Shown here one piece after another: positions 9,179 to 48,101 of a stretch of DNA of 57,502 nt (positions within the stretch are counted from its first letter, which is position 1; each line of letters begins with the position of its first letter). The stretch covers positions 1 through 57,502 of the forward strand of contig JAZDLR010000025.1 in NCBI GenBank assembly GCA_043801745.1, given 5' to 3'. The translations under genes were made by a program, and so were the position numbers. The notes beneath the pieces were generated by a model that saw nothing but the letters and a program-made list of their open reading frames with translations, ran no database searches and was not told the origin of the DNA. This DNA comes from Candidatus Komeilibacteria bacterium (GTDB taxonomy: Bacteria > Patescibacteriota > Patescibacteriia > UBA1558 > 2-01-FULL-52-15).

Positions 9179-9532
9179 ATGAAAAGTGATATGCCCGCCA
9201 GAGGCGGGTCGCCCTATGGGCGAAAAAGCGAATATATAACTAAAGATTACTTTGATGCCGCTATGCGTGAGTATACGTGGGATATTATTGGGCATTTTAA
9301 TAAAAGTCAGGCTGAACAGAATAAACGCGTTGATAAATTGGAAATAGAGTTAAAGAAAGATATTAATGGTTTGAAAGAAACTGTTGATAGCCTAAAAACT
9401 GATGTTAGCTGCATTCAGGAGGTTTTAATGGATTATATTAATACTGATAAAACCGTCGTGACTCTGGTTCATGAACTGGAAGATGATCATCATTTAGCTT
9501 TACCAAAGACCGGAGCCTTATTGGCTAGATAG
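9179..9532 (+). CDS. Small coiled-coil hypothetical protein (start uncertain: 9152, 9179 or 9191)
   Basis: ITKDYFD N-terminal motif; similar to the next gene. Confidence 0.65.
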   Translation: MKSDMPARGGSPYGRKSEYITKDYFDAAMREYTWDIIGHFNKSQAEQNKRVDKLEIELKKDINGLKETVDSLKTDVSCIQEVLMDYINTDKTVVTLVHELEDDHHLALPKTGALLAR

Positions 9533-16093: not shown

Positions 16094-16226
16094 ACCTCAC
16101 CCCGCCAGAGGCGGGCAGGCTGTCCTCTCCTTCTTAAGGAGAGGAACGTTGTTTATATGGCTCGTCGCTCTACTTAACCTCCGTGCGCTCTCCCTCTCCT
16201 TTTGAAGGAGAGGGTTGGGGTGAGGT
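16094..16226. repeat. REP/MITE-like composite repeat, copy 2
   Basis: ACCTCACCCC...GGGGTGAGGT with CCTCTCCTT...AAGGAGAGG hairpins. Confidence 0.85.
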
Positions 16227-24075: not shown

Positions 24076-24516
24076 TTAGAGAACGCGTATTTTCCTCTGA
24101 CGCGCCTCCTTGAGAGAAAGGGGGTAGCAGGGTGGCACATAAGGGCGTAACGCGTAGTCAGTGATGAAGATTGTCGTCATCCCTTTTGTGACGCGGAGTG
24201 CCACTTCATTGTGCCTAACCAGCGGCTTGTGGAGAAAGCGGGAACATTCAGGACTGTCATCGTGATTGAACCCGATGTAGACTCCTCGCGGCTCCTGCGC
24301 GTTGACTGTGGCTAAGGGAATAACAATGACTTGCTGGGTTCTGTTGTTGCCTCCAAAATAGAGAGTTGTTCCGACAAGCGGTGCAGCGCCAGGCAGAGGA
24401 TCTTCGCGAACCAGTGTTATTGGCGTCAGACCGTTGGTCCCGAACCGCGCATACCACTTACAAAATGGATTGCGCCGCCACCAGTTTTTTTTCAAAATCC
24501 TTAAAGGATTTGGCAT
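24076..24516 (-). CDS. Orphan hypothetical protein
   Basis: ACGGAGG SD before ATG 24516; own promoter and terminator. Confidence 0.65.
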   Translation of the reverse strand: MPNPLRILKKNWWRRNPFCKWYARFGTNGLTPITLVREDPLPGAAPLVGTTLYFGGNNRTQQVIVIPLATVNAQEPRGVYIGFNHDDSPECSRFLHKPLVRHNEVALRVTKGMTTIFITDYALRPYVPPCYPLSLKEARQRKIRVL

Positions 24517-24664
24517 TCTCCCTCCGTTTACCTCAAGTGGAATACAAAGAGCATTTAACGCTCGGACTTTAACATAAGAAGTCGTTTTTTTCAAGCAAAA
24601 AACCGCCGGGTCCTATCTTCATGTTGACAGATAGAAACTCGGCGGTCGAACTTGGGTTCGGCAA

Positions 24665-28954: not shown

Positions 28955-29264
28955 CCCGCAGGGTCATCCCGCGAATAGCGGGATCTCCTCTGGGTTCAAG
29001 TTCAGTAGACGTTTGCTGCTTAACCCCTTTCGAGGGAAGTAACAGCAGGGTAGACAGAACTGTTATAAGGAAAATCGTAACGTTATATTGCTAGCCATCA
29101 AATATTTCTCCTGATTTTGGCCGTTGATCTATTTGGTAATCACGATTTTGTCCTTAACTGTATTCGTTAAGAATAAAATCGTGATTTTTCAGTTCATCTC
29201 CTCGGAGGAGTGAACTGACCCGCCTCTGGCGGGGTTAATTACATAATGAATCACACAAATAGAT
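28952..29264 (+). ncRNA. Candidate structured RNA in the rpsJ-rplC spacer
   Basis: Several long stems, including a multibranch domain closed by ATCTATTTG/CAAATAGAT. Confidence 0.45.
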
Positions 29265-42260: not shown

Positions 42261-43317
42261 AATTATTGCTTTATTTCTGGCTTCCGGCATTGTCGGCTGG
42301 CTCTGTACCTGGTTGGTGCGCCGGTTGGCAATAGTTGGTAAGGTATTAGATATACCCGACGATTCGCGCAGGATTCATCAACAGCCCATTCCTTTACTTG
42401 GTGGCTGGGCTTTGTATCTGACAACATTAATTATGACTCTCTGGCTCTATGCCATGGGTCAGGTCAACGATCCCAAGGTGAGTTTGAATCTACTGTTGGG
42501 ATTTTTTATCTCTGGAGCTATTTTGATGCTCGGCGGCTGGCTGGATGACAAGTGGCGGCTGAATTCTTATCAATCTTTAGCGTTTCCGCTTACTGCCGTG
42601 ATTATTGTCATTTTCTCCGGTTTAAAAATGCCTTTTATTACTAATCCTTTTGGCGGATTATTATATTTTCAACAGTGGGAGTCGCTGATATTGGGCGGCC
42701 TTATCAGTTTCACGGGATTATTAATGTTTTTATGGTTAATGACAACCATCTATACCGTTAAATTGTTGGATGGATTGGATGGTTTAGCCAGCTCAATTTC
42801 TTTGGTAGCCATGCTGGTGATTTTTGTCGTAAGTTTATTTTGGGATGCGCCGCACTCATTAACTTCCTATTTATCAATCATTATTGCCGGCGCTCTGATT
42901 GGTTTTTTGTTGTGGAATTGGTATCCGGCCAAAATTTTTTTGGGTGAAAGTGGCAGTACTTGGTTGGGATTTGTCCTGGGTTTTTTAGCTATCGTTACCG
43001 GCGGTAAAATTGCTACCGCTCTTTTGGTTATGGGTATTCCTTTACTGGACGTGATTTGGGTCATTGCGCGGCGTTTGATCCAGAGGAAAAATATTATGAT
43101 TGGTGATGCTGGTCATTTGCATTTTCGCCTGTTGGCTTTAGGTTGGAGTCAGCGCCGGGTAGTGATTACTTTAGCCATTGTTTCTTTGCTTTTTGGCAGC
43201 GTTTCTTTCTTTACCACGACCGGAGGTAAGATTACCGCCCTGGCGGTGTTACTATTACTAATGATTGGCTCGGTTATTTATTTACTACGGCATGAAAAAG
43301 AAAAAGAACATTTATAA
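42247..43317 (+). CDS. Undecaprenyl-phosphate GlcNAc-1-P transferase (WecA/TagO, GT4/MraY-like)
   Basis: LDD, DGLDGLA, PAKIFLGESG, HLH. Confidence 0.9.
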   Translation: MWWIKIIALFLASGIVGWLCTWLVRRLAIVGKVLDIPDDSRRIHQQPIPLLGGWALYLTTLIMTLWLYAMGQVNDPKVSLNLLLGFFISGAILMLGGWLDDKWRLNSYQSLAFPLTAVIIVIFSGLKMPFITNPFGGLLYFQQWESLILGGLISFTGLLMFLWLMTTIYTVKLLDGLDGLASSISLVAMLVIFVVSLFWDAPHSLTSYLSIIIAGALIGFLLWNWYPAKIFLGESGSTWLGFVLGFLAIVTGGKIATALLVMGIPLLDVIWVIARRLIQRKNIMIGDAGHLHFRLLALGWSQRRVVITLAIVSLLFGSVSFFTTTGGKITALAVLLLLMIGSVIYLLRHEKEKEHL

Positions 43318-45179: not shown

Positions 45180-46622
45180 TTAAGAATTAAAATTAGGTTG
45201 CGTAACCGGAGGAGTGAAAGGCAGATCAGTGGGACTTTCAAAGTAGCGCGGAGTGGCTACCGGGGCTTCCTGGCGGGAGTATTTTTCCTGTTCCAGACTG
45301 CGGAAAGAAACGATGTTTTCATCAAAGAAGAGACGAATAAGGCCGGTCGGTCCATTGCGGTGTTTCTCAATGTGGATCTCGGCTAAGTGTTTTTCTTCAT
45401 CCGGACATTCACCACGGCTTTTATCTTTAGCCCGGCGGTAGATAAACATTACCACGTCAGCGTCTTGTTCAATAGAGCCGGATTCGCGCAAGTCGGCTAA
45501 TTTCGGAATAGCCGGTGAGCGCATTTCCACTTGCCGCGATAGCTGGGACAGAGCCAGTACCGGTATTTGCAGTTCGCGGGCAATAGCTTTTAGTCCACGG
45601 GTAATTTCTGCCACTTCCTGAACGCGGCTTTCGGTACTGCGGGCCTCCATTAACTGTAAATAGTCAATAATCAGCAAGTCTAATCCGTGTTCTAGTTTAA
45701 GCCGACGAGCTTTGGTCCGGACTTCCATAACATTAATTGAAGCAGTGTCATCAATATAAATTTTGGCTTCGGATAAAACTCCCATAGCCTGTCCGATACG
45801 GGGAAAATCATCATCACCTTCACGGTCGGATAAGCGTCCGGTTCTCATTTTCCACAGGTCAACTCCGGCCTGGGCGCACAGTAATTTGTCCACTAATTGT
45901 TCCTTGGACATTTCTAAACTAAAGACGCCGACCGAGGATTTACTCTTGACCGCCACGTGCCGCAAAATATCTAAAGCCAGGGTAGTTTTACCGATAGAAG
46001 GACGGGCAGCCAAAATAATTAAGTCGGATTTTTGGAAGCCAGCCAGGATATTGTCCAGGTCGGCATAACCGGTAGGCAGACCGCGGATCTTTCCGGCTTC
46101 TTTGTGTAATTCATCAATGCGGTCAAAGGTTTCGGTTAAAATACTTTTGATGGGGATGAAATTTTGTTTCAAATAGCGCTGGGAGATATGGAAGAGCTTC
46201 TGTTCGGCTTGATCCAGTAGAATATCCACGTCTTCCTGCTCGTTGAAACTGGACTCGGAAATATCTGCTGCGGCGCGTTCCAATTTACGTAAAGTGGCCT
46301 TCTTCTGGATAATGGTAGCATAGTGGACCACGTTAGAGGCCGTAGCCACACTTTCGGCCAGGGTGCTAAGGAAAGTCATGCCACCAATGGTATCCAGCTG
46401 TCCGGAATCTTTCAGGTAACTACTAAGAGACAAAACGTCAATCGGCTCCCGGTGTTCATACAGACCAAGCATGGCAGCGAAAACATCGCCATGGCCGGCT
46501 TTATAGAAATCCTCAGGCGTTATCAGGTCAGCTATCTTGGTAATAGCCTCCTTATCCAGCAGCAAAGCTCCTAATAGGCTGGTTTCGGCGTCAAGATTGT
46601 GGGGTGGTATTCGGGTGGCCAT
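45180..46622 (-). CDS. dnaB: Replicative DNA helicase
   Basis: AARPSIGKT, IDYLQL, LRESGSIEQDAD, KHRNGP. Confidence 0.99.
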   Translation of the reverse strand: MATRIPPHNLDAETSLLGALLLDKEAITKIADLITPEDFYKAGHGDVFAAMLGLYEHREPIDVLSLSSYLKDSGQLDTIGGMTFLSTLAESVATASNVVHYATIIQKKATLRKLERAAADISESSFNEQEDVDILLDQAEQKLFHISQRYLKQNFIPIKSILTETFDRIDELHKEAGKIRGLPTGYADLDNILAGFQKSDLIILAARPSIGKTTLALDILRHVAVKSKSSVGVFSLEMSKEQLVDKLLCAQAGVDLWKMRTGRLSDREGDDDFPRIGQAMGVLSEAKIYIDDTASINVMEVRTKARRLKLEHGLDLLIIDYLQLMEARSTESRVQEVAEITRGLKAIARELQIPVLALSQLSRQVEMRSPAIPKLADLRESGSIEQDADVVMFIYRRAKDKSRGECPDEEKHLAEIHIEKHRNGPTGLIRLFFDENIVSFRSLEQEKYSRQEAPVATPRYFESPTDLPFTPPVTQPNFNS

Positions 46623-46777
46623 AGTAGGCTCATTTTACTCTGTGACGGAGTCTTTTTCAAGTCGGTTTTTGTACCCCACTTATGACCAGTTTTTGAACAA
46701 AAAACCGCTTAGCCGTAGGCCAAGTGGTTGTGTAAAGTAATTAAGATAGTGTGGGTTTTAAAGACTAATCCTTTCTA

Positions 46778-47068
46778 CTACCCATGATGTATGGCGTCTC
46801 TAAGATGCGGAAATCCTAGCTCATTTAAATCAAAACCCCTTGATCCAAATTCTTGCACCAGACGATCAAGGCTGGTATTAGCTTCTTTTTTGTCGTGGGA
46901 GTGAGTATTTATAGTCTCTCTTACAACCGAAATATCATCTCTAAATTCCAGCAAATTACGACCCTCGCTTTCAAGTATATCGTGAAGCTTTTGTGTAATT
47001 TGGTCTAGGGCTCCGTTTGCCTCTAATTTAAGGTCACGGCCTAATTTTGGCCTTTCCATAGTTTCCAT
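46778..47068 (-). CDS. Hypothetical protein
   Basis: 96-aa ORF with AT-rich upstream region. Confidence 0.55.
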   Translation of the reverse strand: METMERPKLGRDLKLEANGALDQITQKLHDILESEGRNLLEFRDDISVVRETINTHSHDKKEANTSLDRLVQEFGSRGFDLNELGFPHLRDAIHHG

Positions 47069-47196
47069 AGATTATGGTTAATAATTATTAGCCCTGTTAT
47101 TATACAAGGATATTCAGAGCGAAGCAATAGAAATTTTTTGTTATTTTTGATTGACAAAATGGAATGTTTTAGGTATTCTTTTAACGTCATTTTATT

Positions 47197-47273
47197 GGGT
47201 CCATAGCTCAGCCTGGTAGAGCAGTTGCCTTTTAAGCAAACGGTCGGAGGTTCGAATCCTCCTGGACCCACCA
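47197..47273 (+). tRNA. tRNA-Lys(TTT)
   Basis: GGGTCCA/TGGACCC acceptor stem, TTCGAAT T-loop, encoded CCA; promoter TTGACA(47151)-17-TATTCT. Confidence 0.97.
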
Positions 47274-47436
47274 TTCTTCGCGAAGCGAAGAATGTCATCC
47301 GTAGCCTTGGCGAAGGATGACAAGAAACAAAAATCAGTGCCAAATCATTGGGCTACGAATGGCACAGCCAATAATATAGTTAAACATCTAAGCAGGTCGG
47401 GCGGGACAGTCCTTTTTATTTGTCCGCCTCTGGCAG

Positions 47437-47477
47437 AAGCAAACGGTCGTCCCGCCGCGGCGGGACTGGACCCACCA
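47437..47477 (+). pseudogene. Degenerate duplicate of the tRNA-Lys 3' half with the T-arm replaced by a palindrome
   Basis: AAGCAAACGGTCG-[TCCCGCCGCGGCGGGA]-CTGGACCCACCA. Confidence 0.8.
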
Positions 47478-47630
47478 TTCTTCGCGCAGTGAAGGATGAC
47501 GAAAAACACCAATCAGTGTCCAATCAATTGGCTACGAATGTCACAGCCACTACACCTTTTAATGTAAATGTATTGGTATAAACGATAGGTTCACTAAACT
47601 GAATCTATTTTTTTATGCTATAATAGCAAT

Positions 47631-48101
47631 ATGAAACGGTTAAATATTTTTACCAAGAAAGTTTTGTTAGCAGCGGGTTTTGTCGTTGTTGCCTTGCTGT
47701 TCCTATTTTATCAATTTCCTCAATGGTTTGTTTCTTTTGATCAGGAAGAACTTCTGAAGCGGGGGATGCTAATAGTGTCTGATCAACAGCCGGGCGCAAC
47801 AATAACTATTGATTACGCTACTTTACCGTTTGGCGGTTTTATTGTTGTGCGTAATGATTTTAATGGTAATTTAGGAGATGTGATTGGAGTTAGTCAGTAT
47901 CTTGAACCTGGACGCTATAAATCTATCCGTATTCCGGCTCTACTGACCACAGCAACTGGTCAGACCGTAGCAGCCGGGATTGTTAAAGATAACGGTAATC
48001 AACATTTGGATTCTGGCGATCAGTTACTTTTTGATGTTAGAAATAATCCTTTTATCAGAGAATTTATTATCGGTACGCCGCCAGTTACGCCAACAAAATA
48101 A
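47631..48101 (+). CDS. Membrane-anchored hypothetical protein
   Basis: N-terminal TM; V.DQ.PG...GFIVV...G.VIG.S motif. Confidence 0.75.
   Translation: MKRLNIFTKKVLLAAGFVVVALLFLFYQFPQWFVSFDQEELLKRGMLIVSDQQPGATITIDYATLPFGGFIVVRNDFNGNLGDVIGVSQYLEPGRYKSIRIPALLTTATGQTVAAGIVKDNGNQHLDSGDQLLFDVRNNPFIREFIIGTPPVTPTK

Follow-up and report, generated by a model that had tools for sequence, protein, structure and literature searches.

A probable tRNA gene relic with a GC palindrome in place of its T-arm behind the working tRNA-Lys(UUU) gene of a Candidatus Komeilibacteria bacterium

Behind the working tRNA-Lys(UUU) gene of a Candidatus Komeilibacteria bacterium lies a second, decayed copy in which the interior of the T-arm is exchanged for a 16-nt palindrome. 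We take this copy (47393-47549) to be what is left of an older, now dead tRNA-Lys(UUU) gene and the locus to be a graveyard of tRNA-targeting nuclease and cassette insertions. It would belong to a class of "tRNA graveyards", present in this genome and in many genomes of the CPR/Patescibacteria, in which a working tRNA stands beside or inside displaced pieces of the same isoacceptor. This reading, judged as a whole, is one that we hold with moderate confidence. The DNA analyzed (hereafter the window) comprises 57,502 nt of assembly GCA_043801745.1 (contig JAZDLR010000025.1, positions 1-57,502); the host genome (G000) is a 1.09-Mb metagenome-assembled genome (MAG) of 26 contigs that is 98.8% complete with an estimated contamination of 1.57%.

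The features of the locus are collected in Table 1. The working gene passes the tRNA test with 71 bits, against a gathering score of 29 for RF00005. Its segment 47234-47246 recurs at 47437-47449 with 13 of 13 positions identical (repeat D6), 47262-47294 matches 47466-47498 with 91% identity over 33 nt, the first 21 nt being identical, and 47312-47373 matches 47491-47552 with 84% identity over 62 nt; BLAST comparison of the working unit with the copy gave E-values of 5e-6 for a 59-nt block and 8e-5 for the 21-mer. These blocks bear out the initial annotation of this DNA in its claim that the 3' part of the tRNA-Lys gene is repeated together with its trailer. Equally well founded was the claim of an exact swap, since the 15-nt T-arm interior is replaced by the 16-nt palindrome TCCCGCCGCGGCGGGA between identical flanks on both sides. 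When folded as single-stranded DNA, the palindrome forms a 7-bp stem with -7.3 kcal/mol, compared to -2.9 kcal/mol for the T-arm. The palindromic module that had been noted where the anticodon loop would join is present as well, as TCCGCCTCTGGCAGA within the 19-nt insertion.

Other parts of that first description need revision. The repeat exists, but the copy is not merely a duplicated 3' half: it reaches in the 5' direction to about 47406 with a possible remnant of positions 24-37, which is preceded by a GC-rich block, and it is better seen as the relic of a displaced tRNA gene in a genome-wide system of tRNA-in-tRNA nests. Both units do run on into shared trailer blocks, but the second trailer has suffered a 27-nt deletion that fuses two hairpins, and its distal TGG is mutated to TGT. 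The copy (47393-47477) failed the tRNA test, as it matched no Rfam family at E<=10 and received no ARAGORN call. It carries three lesions, and the status of a relic also fits the absence of a tRNA call; a generic global alignment of the copy to tRNA is uninformative because of the two foreign modules.

Table 1. Features of the tRNA-Lys(UUU) locus (positions in the window)
Feature	Position	Strand	Basis
Promoter-like site TTGACA-17 nt-TATTCT upstream of the working tRNA-Lys	47151..47179	+	Consensus scan, 10/12 matches; consensus match only
Working tRNA-Lys(UUU) gene, CCA encoded	47197..47273	+	ARAGORN Lys(ttt); Rfam RF00005, 71 bits, E 2e-15
T-arm interior of the working gene, tRNA nt 50-64; absent from the copy	47247..47261	+	Coordinates from sequence comparison
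Structured trailer of the working gene	47274..47370	+	Homology to GIY-YIG leader; fold z-score -5.1; covariation in 10 sequences
GC-rich block, apparently similar to the ..GGCGGG right ends of inverted-repeat cassettes breaking ψLys(CUU) and ψVal(GAC) at D-arm 23|24	47393..47405	+	By-eye comparison with C6:122406-122425 and C6:100709-100727
Possible decayed remnant of tRNA positions ~24-37	47406..47418	+	Weak by-eye alignment to 47220-47234, ~11/15 with a 2-nt gap
19-nt hairpin module in the anticodon loop of the copy, degenerate CCGCC-TCT-GGCGG type	47419..47437	+	16/19 matches with the 19-nt module of ψPro(GGG) at 43|44, C26:14201-14219
tRNA positions 38-49 of the copy; no difference from the working gene	47438..47449	+	13/13 repeat D6
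16-nt GC palindrome in place of T-arm nt 50-64	47450..47465	+	Sequence comparison, fold, family evidence
tRNA positions 65-76 of the copy, comprising the 3' acceptor strand, discriminator, and CCA; no difference from the working gene	47466..47477	+	Repeat D2; 21-nt exact match
Second, decayed trailer/leader copy	47478..47549	+	Alignment; repeats D1 and D2; fold z-score only -1.2

Hairpins at 47272-47294 and 47294-47321 structure the trailer of the working gene, whose distal GAATGG pairs with CCA-TTC. This trailer (47267-47377) shares 73% identity over 123 nt with a leader on contig C6 that separates tRNA-Val(TAC) from a GIY-YIG ORF, and it matches three other GIY-YIG leaders over shorter stretches. 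Judged by this similarity, it is the same element as the conserved structured leader found in front of small GIY-YIG ORFs at other places in the genome; unlike those leaders, it is not followed by an ORF. Within 46900-47700 we found no GIY-YIG ORF, and a flanking 96-aa ORF has no Pfam match. A 156-aa ORF further downstream matched two loci with 34% identity in a search of metagenome contigs. Of the public sequencing runs, the best match to this DNA shared 0.12 of the sampled words. Public reads of relatives (four runs) cover only 47184-47330, that is, the tRNA and the start of the trailer, and none of them lies over the copy.

Further candidates were considered and rejected. An apparent remnant of a GIY-YIG ORF start after 47549, seen by eye, has no significant BLAST similarity beyond the leader. 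The units are not a simple tandem duplication, as what precedes unit 2 does not recur behind it, and a 21-nt similarity between 47178-47198 and 47556-47576 (81%) is within chance. Finally, the palindrome does not qualify as an intrinsic terminator: a scan of 47273-47630 yielded no terminator-like site, and CTGGACCC comes after the palindrome.

Palindromes of this family are numerous. The window contains 6 sites of the form CCGCC-N0-12-GGCGG, compared to 0.79 expected, a number that none of 100 shuffles reached, and 41 of the 55 CCGCC-N2-5-GGCGG sites of the genome lie outside ORFs of at least 120 aa, although these ORFs cover 85% of the DNA. The T-arm swap pattern itself has 10 matches in 5 of the 86 genomes of the order (this genome included), with 0 matches for the reversed control. 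In addition to the window copy, the swap is present in ψVal(GAC) of the same genome and at 8 places in 4 other genomes of the order, each of which follows, at a distance of 19-183 nt, an intact tRNA for the same type of amino acid; the pattern also occurs in many Patescibacteria records. Among GTDB representatives, 28 of 41 matches at loci with a GC content below 0.62 have a tRNA at most 600 nt upstream, compared to 0 of 42 at GC-rich loci. The initial annotation had suggested that palindromes of this kind replace existing hairpins beyond merely inserting, and had recommended looking in CPR genomes for further tRNA fragments with such a palindrome in place of an arm; the replacement is indeed precise in its position, and other fragments were found. 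Since the swap is exact and recurrent, the copy in the window is not a unique case.

The T-arm module has the ends YCCCGC(C)...(G)GCGGGR and, in its empty form of 16-18 nt, replaces exactly nt 50-64 and usually leaves base pair 49:65 in place. Of the 23 distinct swapped copies that have a matching tRNA next to them, 21 retain position 49, 20 retain position 65, and 19 retain both. The first loop base of the palindrome is an A in 15 of the 23 distinct swapped copies, from which it follows that the module has a polarity. Modules found in the D-arm and the anticodon loop are plain insertions by which nothing is replaced. Displaced 3' copies can also start inside the T-loop at 57|58 (3 cases), and the T-arm is intact in 6 of the 9 displaced 3' copies of G000 that reach this region. 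A second hairpin family of the genome, CAGATTGCTTC...TCGCAATGAC, is represented by 9 copies in which the inner hairpins are interchangeable between fixed flanks.

A much larger insert occupies the same position in ψThr(TGT), where a 155-nt cassette (C5:24373-24527) with the ends YCCCGC...GCGGGR of the window palindrome replaces nt 50-64 and contains the working tRNA-Thr. The cassette leaves G49 and T65 in place, the acceptor strands outside it are complementary to each other, and the outer Thr(TGT) gene shares its acceptor stem with intact genes in two other genomes (G013 and G040). Empty and loaded forms thus both have terminal inverted repeats. Because the ψThr(TGT) cassette carries a tRNA between the same ends at nt 50-64, we prefer to read the 16-nt palindrome as the empty state of a cassette that replaces the T-arm and is able to carry a complete tRNA gene. 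A search of the 86 genomes detected no other locus of this loaded kind with a gap of 120-150 nt, and none with a gap of 151-181 nt.

Nesting of tRNA genes is common in this genome. Ten of its 49 tRNA genes lie beside or inside partial copies of the same isoacceptor, within 250 bp, and the breaks in the fragments fall in the D-arm (12|13, 23|24), anticodon loop (~37|38), and T-arm, with GC-rich inverted-repeat modules filling them; D-arm cassettes end in CCYGCCCGCC...GGCRGGCGGG. A 20-nt 3' copy of tRNA-Gln(CTG) lies 3.7 kb away from its gene. Genomes of the same genus carry uninterrupted "empty-site" genes for Lys(CUU) and Val(GAC). When joined, the two outer fragments of ψLys(CUU) match the uninterrupted gene of G002 at 75 of 76 positions; the insert of 174 bp carries a different tRNA-Lys(CUU), and the junction shows no extra bases, and hence no target-site duplication of the MITE type. 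Outer positions 1-24 (23/24) and 25-50 (26/26) of ψVal(GAC) match intact genes of G001 and G002. For the tRNA-Lys(UUU) locus of the window itself, no orthologous empty site was found in relatives. After the palindrome of ψVal(GAC), the sequence agrees with the resident type at 7 of 12 positions, and with the type of another genome (G007) at 11 of 12. The palindrome at this locus thus sits at a junction of resident and foreign DNA, which points to recombination with incoming DNA and not to local editing. To the extent that the literature and main texts available to us cover CPR bacteria, we found no description of tRNA fragments, nested tRNA genes, or T-arm replacement in them, although supplementary tables might hold some.

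The initial annotation had also raised the question of co-occurring nucleases, and a family of small GIY-YIG ORFs was found. The genome has 9 matches, and the two G000 ORFs that were scanned belong to PF01541. Small Slx1/UPF0213-like GIY-YIG ORFs cluster at tRNA and ψ loci: 4 of the 9 lie at most 150 bp from a tRNA, which 3 of 20000 random placements equal, and 5 of the 9 lie at most 600 bp away, which none of 20000 do. The median number of GIY-YIG matches is 10 in genomes that contain swaps and 5 in the others, a comparison among kin that are not independent. A GIY-YIG ORF on the same strand lies within about 500 nt of only 10 of 45 distinct swapped copies; as these ORFs are associated with tRNA genes generally, their link to the swap itself is indirect. 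The proteins, of 81-112 aa, consist of the catalytic domain only, and their nearest solved relatives by sequence are UPF0213 and SLX1; one of the ORFs lies at C6:117623-117892. A family of 230-aa ORFs, represented at C6:100852-101541, is a candidate for a LAGLIDADG-like fold on the strength of one Atlas lead; it has no Pfam match, no meaningful PDB sequence match, and, in NCBIfam, only a sub-threshold IS3 HTH. Searches of the 98.8% complete genome gave 0 hits for the RAYT/Y1 transposase (PF01797; the control search matches 6 of 14 reference genomes) and 0 hits for the tRNA-splicing endonuclease EndA (PF01974). Tyrosine recombinases (PF00589) number two in the genome (C5:99753 and C3:43987), neither of them at a tRNA-nest locus. 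No transposase that matches the inverted-repeat cassettes was identified, and at the T-arm 15 nt are lost.

The anatomy of the copies, the recurrence of the swap with its exact boundaries, the empty-site alleles, the loaded cassette, and the association with nuclease genes are direct observations. We propose that a nuclease recognizing tRNA-gene DNA would break the resident tRNA gene, and we infer who cuts, where the cut falls, how a cassette is joined, and any selective benefit, as well as the enzyme and the chemistry of the swap. As the breaking enzyme, small GIY-YIG proteins of the Slx1/UPF0213-like type are candidates; their ORFs and structured leaders lie at these tRNA loci. By analogy with the motif preference of phage SegB, the T-loop might be the target of the cut; GTTCGAATC in the T-arm interior of the working gene, read directly from the sequence, is the reverse complement of the reported cleavage-preference motif RAWTSGAAC. 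A hairpin-ended cassette would then be joined or copied into the break, and the cassette or a neighboring copy would supply a working tRNA, so that the disruption of an essential gene could be tolerated. Nuclease ORFs and cargo would decay later, and palindromes and fragments would remain. Replacement of the T-arm interior would strip the conserved T-loop motif from the redundant copy, and it would also split the direct repeat with the working gene into pieces of 13 nt and 21 nt, which should stabilize the locus. Working tRNAs keep their T-loops, however, and immunity conferred by the swap therefore cannot be the whole story. The window itself has no nuclease ORF, and the loaded T-arm cassette is a single example; both speak against the nuclease and cassette reading, as do the intact T-arms in 6 of the 9 displaced 3' copies of G000 that reach this region, the small share of swapped copies near a GIY-YIG ORF (10 of 45), and the lack of RAYT hits and of a tyrosine recombinase at these loci. 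The small GIY-YIG proteins, with their catalytic domain only, differ from SegB, and their cleavage specificity is putative. Moreover, the proposed mechanism gives no reason why exactly nt 50-64 are lost at the T-arm, as opposed to the plain insertions in the D-arm and anticodon loop. A bolder version, which we put forward only tentatively, would make these sequences an undescribed kind of mobile DNA: hairpin-ended mini-cassettes, moved by Slx1-like GIY-YIG nucleases that cut at the bases of stem-loops in tRNA genes, might insert into loops or exchange arm interiors, take whole tRNAs as cargo, and continually overwrite essential single-copy tRNA genes across the Candidate Phyla Radiation, with the 16-nt palindrome as the minimal, cargo-free element.

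The arm interior might instead be exchanged in situ, by a structure-specific enzyme acting on stem-loops of single-stranded or cruciform DNA, which would cut at the stem base and put a palindromic module in place of the interior, with neither nuclease homing nor incoming DNA. The boundaries are symmetric about the hairpin axis, as seen from the joint retention of positions 49 and 65 (19/23), and in most nests the outer acceptor strands are still complementary across the palindrome, which would place the swap within one coherent gene. Whole tRNA genes could move in the same way, since their paired ends make them hairpin-shaped. The many isoacceptors affected (Lys, Val, Thr, Ala, Asp, Pro, Met, Ile, and Arg) imply many independent events; the second hairpin family with its interchangeable interiors, the loop polarity of the modules, and the relationship of the GIY-YIG proteins to SLX1, a structure-specific endonuclease, would all suit such an exchange. 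Yet the foreign sequence that follows the ψVal(GAC) palindrome marks a recombination junction, not a local swap, a foreign 3' end is likewise present in ψThr of G016, the D-arm and anticodon-loop modules insert without replacing anything, and the genome has no HUH/RAYT transposase. We know of no enzyme activity or intermediate for an exchange of this type and regard it as unlikely. The hairpin-targeted DNA editing or recombination to which the initial annotation had attributed the swap is upheld in part: the exact and recurrent replacement of one hairpin by another is borne out, editing of DNA is conjectural, and the junction at ψVal(GAC) points to recombination with incoming DNA.

Selection for a functional RNA or DNA element appears improbable to us. 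The copy could serve as a tRNA-like scaffold, a processing signal, or a decoy, with the GC hairpin selected for a stacked acceptor/"T" helix that lacks a T-loop, or the outer gene could encode a split tRNA, or one with an intron, that is restored at the RNA level. Such a role would agree with the tRNA-derived flanks of the palindrome being identical to the working gene at 34 of 34 positions, while the trailers agree at 84-91%, with the frequent complementarity of outer acceptor strands, with the long leader/trailer inverted repeats that flank inner tRNAs, with the canonical intron position being among the insertion sites, and with the stem and acceptor sequence shared by the ψAsp units of two genomes (G082 and G038). 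Repair at the RNA level is hard to reconcile with the lack of PF01974 hits; furthermore, nt 50-64 of the outer gene are absent and nowhere supplied, so that a normal tRNA could not be put together again. At no locus do the three genomes of the genus share their arrangement; here, both positions 24-37 and the second trailer show decay, and the ensemble fold of the unit is ordinary (z -1.2) and matches no Rfam family.

A tyrosine-integrase phage or island may have entered tRNA-Lys, rebuilt the gene with its own 3' part, and displaced the original 3' part (attR), after which the element was almost entirely deleted and REP-like hairpins gathered in the remaining junk. A working tRNA followed by its own 3' fragment is the classic att duplication, and the distant tRNA-Gln(CTG) copy fits this history; the anticodon loop and the T-loop are, as Williams reportedly described in 2002, crossover sublocations of tRNA-integrating elements. 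We nevertheless consider an integrase scar highly improbable. No integrase lies at or near the nests, and the inserts measure only 20-250 bp at 10 loci, with ~160 bp between the units of the window. Elsewhere, 5' and 3' fragments flank a complete foreign tRNA while the sister genome has a clean empty site, an arrangement that one crossover cannot produce. An att scar would keep T-stem and T-loop instead of losing exactly nt 50-64, and the repeat runs ~75 nt past the tRNA into the trailer. Least credible, to the point of being nearly negligible, is ordinary tandem duplication and neutral decay with a chance palindrome, or an artefact of assembling the metagenome bin: a 26-contig MAG with some estimated contamination and the tandem arrays of the unit that exist elsewhere (L062) might suggest it, but point mutation cannot replace a 15-nt block wholesale between flanks of 13 and 21 matching nt, dozens of independent assemblies belonging to different record series carry this replacement with unchanged boundaries, and reversed-pattern controls had 0 matches in 86 genomes.

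If the nuclease and cassette reading holds, the tRNA genes of the smallest bacterial genomes are not static; they would be battlegrounds, repeatedly destroyed and replaced by small nuclease genes and hairpin cassettes. It would account for puzzling tRNA fragments and GC palindromes of CPR genomes, provide a concrete cellular counterpart of the story of phage SegB and tRNAs, and connect with the short, so far unexplained insertions that CPR rRNA genes carry at stem-loops. It would also define a testable system of structure-directed DNA exchange with a 15-nt target, a 16-nt product, and candidate nucleases of 80-110 aa. Annotation of CPR tRNAs and prediction of tRNA-based integration sites should allow for nested and arm-swapped copies.

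Among known systems, SegB, the free-standing GIY-YIG homing endonuclease of the tRNA cluster of T-even phages, shares with the present one a GIY-YIG nuclease gene among tRNA genes; according to the sections devoted to it, SegB cuts inside tRNA genes, prefers RAWTSGAAC, which is the T-loop on the other strand, and drives recombination-dependent amplification of tRNA segments, and segB homologues are enriched near tRNAs (PMC13096335). SegB is a phage protein, whereas the CPR proteins, nearest to UPF0213/SLX1, consist of the catalytic domain only and have a putative activity. SegB also has a DNA-binding part. Those same sections on SegB contain no nested tRNA-in-tRNA arrangements, GC palindromes, or arm replacement (PMC13096335). 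Of a GIY-YIG homing cassette, the window locus has the cassette-like flank, namely the trailer, but not the ORF.

Integrative elements reportedly target tRNA genes and leave a duplicated 3' fragment, another point made by Williams in 2002. The nests resemble them in the order of working tRNA and displaced 3' fragment, in breaks at the anticodon and T loops, and in the restoration of the disrupted gene; they differ in the lack of an integrase, the inserts of 20-250 bp, the supply of a complete tRNA, the presence of 5' fragments, and a T-arm that is lost and not duplicated. The disrupted tRNA genes of archaea and red algae (with introns, split, or permuted) share, in the passages that treat them, interruptions of the D-arm, anticodon loop, and T-arm, as well as GC-rich complementary junction sequences, and one model invokes mobile elements (PMC4390854, PMC4033280, PMC3293823). 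As described there, they are repaired at the RNA level by a splicing endonuclease, whereas here the enzyme is absent, the T-arm is gone, and an intact copy stands inside or beside the broken one.

The small dispersed repeats of cyanobacteria, described by Elhai in 2008, are said to be, like the present modules, very small GC-rich hairpin elements. Fungal mitochondrial GC clusters and double-hairpin elements, as portrayed in parts of the sources, are tiny GC-rich hairpins that spread in non-coding DNA and structured-RNA genes and are sometimes nested in other hairpins, and their enzymology is as obscure as that of the present modules (PMC4478555; Paquin et al., 2000, via PMC3787672). The hosts of these repeats are organelles or cyanobacteria, as opposed to a CPR bacterium. 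To our knowledge, neither exact substitution of a tRNA arm nor a tRNA cargo has been described for GC clusters, double-hairpin elements, or cyanobacterial repeats. Insertions in CPR rRNA genes come from the same group of organisms and, in the main text of the report on them, are located for the most part at stem-loop tops or bases; many are uncharacterized, short, and devoid of ORFs, and GIY-YIG proteins occur in non-intron inserts (PMC11270868). They concern working rRNA genes, and in that main text, in which the word "tRNA" is absent, neither hairpin replacement nor a cargo gene is reported (PMC11270868). Finally, REP/REPIN sequences are likewise short, extragenic, GC-rich palindromes, often in doublets or clusters, that can insert into or next to each other; as outlined in portions of the source, they are mobilized by RAYT transposases and thought to move as single-strand hairpins (PMC3116915). 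The present genome has no RAYT/Y1, and its modules, with conserved stems and free loops, differ from REP/REPIN in their targeting of tRNA arms and in their capacity for exact hairpin replacement and for carrying an entire tRNA gene.

The initial annotation had described a duplicated 3' half of tRNA-Lys in which the T-arm is swapped for a palindrome, and this description proved correct in its repeats and in the exactness of the replacement. The copy is called as a tRNA neither by ARAGORN nor by Rfam (E<=10). The 3' part of the tRNA-Lys(UUU) gene and about 75 nt of its trailer recur from position 47437 on in three blocks: 47234-47246 and 47437-47449 are identical (13/13), a block of 33 nt has 91% identity with an identical opening (21/21), and a block of 62 nt has 84% identity. 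The 15-nt T-arm interior (47247-47261) is replaced by a 16-nt palindrome (47450-47465), and the tRNA-derived flanks are identical on both sides. As single-stranded DNA, the palindrome forms a 7-bp stem (-7.3 kcal/mol; the T-arm, -2.9). Through this replacement of nt 50-64, the T-loop motif is gone from the redundant copy, and its 49-nt direct repeat with the working gene is reduced to pieces of 13 and 21 nt. To the earlier description we can add that the copy reaches further 5' than 47437 and that the second trailer carries a 27-nt deletion. The stretch before the gene (window 45180-47068) contains dnaB, here upstream of tRNA-Lys(UUU) and in the opposite orientation; in the same-genus genome G001 (locus L010), dnaB is found downstream on the same strand, a placement that suggests a rearrangement with its breakpoint at the tRNA-Lys(UUU) locus.

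Features of the tRNA-Lys(UUU) locus in the window and of related sites on contigs of the source genome (C) and in extracted loci (L); (-), minus strand
Feature	Position	Remark
Promoter-like site	47151-47179	upstream of tRNA-Lys(UUU)
tRNA-Lys(UUU), standard gene	47197-47273	ARAGORN; Rfam 71 bits
GC block	47393-47405	5' of the remnant below
Decayed remnant of tRNA positions about 24-37	47406-47418	5' of the 19-nt module
19-nt hairpin module	47419-47437	inserted in the copy's anticodon loop
Nest, tRNA-Lys(CUU)	C6:122229-122478	intact gene within disrupted resident copy, D-arm between 23 and 24
Nest, tRNA-Val(GAC)	C6:100529-100782	intact gene within disrupted resident copy, D-arm between 23 and 24
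Nest, tRNA-Thr(TGT)	C5:24361-24630(-)	intact gene in place of resident copy's T-arm
Fragment starting between 57 and 58	C26:2316-2334	source genome
Fragments starting between 57 and 58	L004 (G040), L013 (G001)	downstream of tRNA-Lys
Structured element, ~100 nt	window 47267-47374; L003:217-333, L004:1442-1554(-), L005:1572-1677, L013:671-776	
Structured element, further copies	L014:533-670, L015:470-577, L125:1716-1834(-), L140:1399-1506(-), L142:1315-1426	
CAGATTGCTTC...TCGCAATGAC repeats	C1:17383, C1:23966, C1:17379(-), C3:1549, C12:4006, C20:29739, C20:29431(-), C20:4135(-), C24:22327	

The T-arm swap is not confined to the window. In the source genome, a 17-nt palindrome of this type also takes the place of the T-arm in the displaced tRNA-Val(GAC) copy (ψVal). 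The search of CPR genomes for palindrome-replaced tRNA arms, proposed in the initial annotation, revealed the swap in five of the order's 86 genomes and in GTDB representatives whose record titles name Patescibacteria lineages. Within the order, the pattern GGTC, CCGCC-loop-GGCGG, 11 nt, CCA gave 10 matches in these five genomes, and the reversed control pattern gave none in the 86. Each of the eight matches outside the source genome follows, at a distance of 19-183 nt, an intact tRNA whose amino-acid type it shares (Val-CAC, Val-GAC, Thr-CGT, Ala-GGC, Ala-TGC, and three Asp). A stricter pattern, run over the GTDB species representatives, returned 94 stretches, 80 of which were given as loci with 83 matches, a few of them places already found in the order-wide search. 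Among these 80, a same-strand tRNA is present within 600 nt upstream for 28/41 matches in low-GC loci (GC <0.62), mostly at 10-80 nt, and for 0/42 in GC-rich loci; the GC-rich matches are therefore due to chance. The Patescibacteria lineages named in record titles are Parcubacteria, Uhrbacteria, Microgenomates, Moranbacteria, Kerfeldbacteria, Saccharibacteria, Doudnabacteria, and Peribacteria; a few matching MAGs are labelled Omnitrophota, Pirellulales, or Zixibacteria, and some labels look doubtful.

The boundaries were assessed in 23 distinct swapped copies that agree with their neighbouring tRNA in at least 6 of 8 acceptor and discriminator bases. Of these copies, 21 preserve position 49, 20 preserve position 65, and 19 preserve both; between the two positions, every copy reads YCCCGCC, 2-4 nt, GGCGGGR. 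AA is the commonest loop (7/23). Since the first loop base is A in 15 copies and T in one, the module is polar relative to the tRNA strand. A second type of T-arm breakpoint was seen in three cases, where a displaced 3' tRNA fragment starts in the T-loop between 57 and 58, directly behind a GC hairpin. At L062:510 onward and L088:16-130, the swapped unit forms tandem arrays (10-nt trailer plus 33-nt unit, repeated). The repeat of L088, a locus labelled Zixibacteria, contains an anticodon-arm-like hairpin with a loop that would read TTA; no intact tRNA was called nearby.

A T-arm replacement that carries cargo is found on the minus strand of contig C5. The acceptor strands of an outer tRNA-Thr(TGT) are fully complementary there and are those of intact tRNA-Thr(TGT) genes in two other genomes of the order (G013, G040). 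In place of nt 50-64 of this outer gene stands a 155-nt segment (24373-24527), which starts with TCCCGC, ends with GCGGGA, and holds a working tRNA-Thr(TGT) at 24410-24485; G49 and T65 are retained, and the anticodon loop has also received a double-hairpin insertion. Boundaries and terminal motifs equal those of the 16-nt palindrome, and we therefore read the palindrome as a T-arm-replacing cassette in its cargo-free state. The loaded cassette is a single example: pattern searches of the 86 genomes found one locus at gaps of 120-150 nt and none at 151-181 nt. Another inverted-repeat type, CCYGCCCGCC...GGCRGGCGGG, is loaded in the source genome, in G016, and in L071, and stands empty in the anticodon loop of a ψVal in G006. 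In L068, L039, L038, and L029, all loci of the scan over GTDB representatives, inner working tRNAs lie between leader/trailer inverted repeats of 11-19 bp that lengthen the acceptor stem; those of L068 and L039 start with TCCCGC and end with GCGGGA.

BLAST searches against the source genome (1.09 Mb, 45% GC, 26 contigs, estimated 98.8% complete), of which the window is contig C11, combined with reading of the loci, showed that 10 of its 49 tRNA genes have partial copies of the same-isoacceptor gene within 250 bp (Phe, Cys, Ser-GGA, Leu-CAG, Pro-GGG, Thr-TGT, Ala-CGC, Val-GAC, Lys-CTT, and the window's Lys-TTT). Several of these loci are nests, in which the intact gene lies between an upstream 5' fragment and a downstream 3' fragment, and empty-site genes for nests were found in sister genomes. 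When the outer Lys(CUU) fragments (C6:122229-122251 and 122426-122478) are joined, they yield a complete tRNA with 75/76 identity to the uninterrupted gene of the same-genus genome G002, at the same place directly after tRNA-Arg(TCG): a clean filled-site/empty-site pair. The 174-bp insert has GC-rich inverted ends, an AT-rich leader, and as cargo a different tRNA-Lys(CUU), with 74/77 identity to the window's Lys(UUU). At the Val(GAC) locus, G001 and G002 have the plain order Leu(TAG)-Val(GAC)-11 nt-Ala(GGC), and the resident gene of the source genome is split by a cassette with another tRNA-Val, at the same D-arm position as Lys(CUU). ARAGORN also calls an odd "tRNA-Lys(ctt)" whose anticodon arm is unusual (C6:53201-53277, minus); its first 12 nt recur 41 nt upstream, with two GC hairpins between.

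The source genome contains 55 CCGCC-N2-5-GGCGG sites, often paired with a TCGCCC-NNN-GGGCGA hairpin; 41 lie outside ORFs of at least 120 aa, which make up 85% of the DNA. Other CCGCC-loop-GGCGG hairpins of the window are at 9194-9208, 16101-16115, 29219-29233, and 43234-43247, three of them intergenic and adjoining more hairpins (TCGCCC-NNN-GGGCGA or TCCTCTCC..GGAGAGGA). A separate repeat family, CAGATTGCTTC-[inner hairpin]-TCGCAATGAC, has nine copies with constant flanks and very different inner hairpins, two of the T-arm palindrome type; interchangeable interiors are therefore not unique to T-arms. On C20, two inverted copies flank a 98-aa GIY-YIG ORF like terminal repeats.

The initial annotation had also called for a check for co-occurring nucleases, and this check brought small GIY-YIG ORFs to light. 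Apart from UvrC, the source genome has nine matches (predicted ORFs of 81-112 aa), four within 150 bp of a tRNA gene and five within 600 bp, counts equalled in 3 and 0, respectively, of 20000 random placements. Six of six representatives (two from the source genome, four from others) match PF01541; nearest by sequence are UPF0213 (1zg2, E 1.4e-4) and SLX1 structure-specific endonucleases (E 5e-3). A GIY-YIG ORF on the same strand lies within about 500 nt of 10 of the 45 distinct swapped copies from low-GC loci; six of these ORFs begin 46-421 nt after the copy start and four stop 4-312 nt before the copy. Counted as matches rather than copy numbers, the GIY-YIG median is 10 in the five swap genomes versus 5 in the other 81 (one-sided Mann-Whitney p 0.0055, with kin not independent). 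The source genome contains no RAYT/Y1 transposase and no tRNA-splicing endonuclease, and its two tyrosine recombinase matches are both away from the nest and ψ loci. Between the swapped ψVal(GAC) and tRNA-Ala(GGC) lies a 230-aa ORF (C6:100852-101541; L135:1825-2514) that G001 and G002 lack. Its large family, which has no Pfam entry, consists of proteins of about 225 aa (685 homologues at E<=0.001; named sources among the matches listed are CPR bacteria). The N-terminal region of the protein is HTH-like, and the Atlas structure cluster closest to it carries the automatic name LAGLIDADG homing endonuclease (TM 0.91), an assignment that we take as a lead only.

The trailer of the window's tRNA-Lys resembles the leader that separates tRNA-Val(TAC) from a GIY-YIG ORF on C6 (73% identity over 123 nt), and its second hairpin is common to three other GIY-YIG leaders. 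In several tRNA genes, the encoded CCA marks the start of this conserved, RNA-like structured element of ~100 nt, which ends immediately 5' of the small GIY-YIG ORF if there is one; it has no Rfam family. In 10 trailers from six genomes, the two hairpins covary, with double-sided changes in 8/21 predicted pairs. A mutually exclusive long-range helix joins CCA and the next three bases to a distal N'N'N'-TGG; 60/60 cells are paired in 10 sequences, two pairs covary, none of 500 shuffles matches its score, and slid controls are 17-50% paired. Its triplet types are TTC, ACC, CCC, and TCC, with ATC in an eleventh, unaligned instance. The element may couple tRNA 3' processing to nuclease expression. 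It is broken in the trailer of the window's second unit.

The window copy is a pseudogene relic with three lesions typical of this system: a GC block resembling a D-arm cassette end, an anticodon-loop hairpin, and the T-arm replacement. Nuclease-type leaders, now without ORFs, stand behind both the working tRNA-Lys gene and the relic. Most likely, the resident tRNA-Lys gene was repeatedly attacked by tRNA-directed nucleases; hairpin-ended cassettes would have been joined or copied into the breaks, with tRNA function preserved by a cassette-borne or neighbouring copy, and cargo and nuclease genes would have decayed afterwards. The data show the anatomy, its recurrence and boundaries, the empty sites, the loaded cassette, and the association with nuclease genes; which enzyme acts, where it cuts, how the cassette is joined, and whether there is a selective benefit are inferred. 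Against it stand the lack of a nuclease ORF in the window, the presence of a GIY-YIG ORF near only 10 of the 45 swapped copies, the T-arm kept in 6/9 source-genome relics reaching that region, the T-loops retained in working tRNAs, and the single loaded T-arm cassette. The 12 nt past the ψVal palindrome match a gene of G007, another genome of the order, in 11/12 positions versus 7/12 for the resident type, so that this palindrome marks a junction with foreign DNA; in most nests, the outer acceptor strands are still complementary across the palindrome. Local exchange and import by recombination may therefore both occur.

Partial precedents exist. SegB, a GIY-YIG homing endonuclease of phage T6, cleaves inside tRNA genes at sites enriched for RAWTSGAAC and leads to recombination-dependent amplification of a tRNA-containing segment; its homologues are enriched near tRNA genes (PMC13096335). 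The reverse complement of this motif, GTTCSAWTY, is the T-loop, and the window's replaced 15-mer includes this form (GTTCGAATC). A paper on CPR rRNA genes, whose main text does not mention tRNA, describes short insertions without ORFs, located mostly at the top or base of stem-loops, as well as non-intron inserts that encode GIY-YIG proteins (PMC11270868). Supplements aside, our literature searches found no report from CPR bacteria of tRNA genes nested in one another, of tRNA fragments, or of a replaced T-arm. The ingredients, nuclease-gene scars, displaced gene fragments, and mobile GC hairpins, are of known kinds; what appears to be new is the exact substitution of a tRNA arm, the tRNA-in-tRNA nests, one of them inside a T-arm, and the spread of both over CPR lineages.
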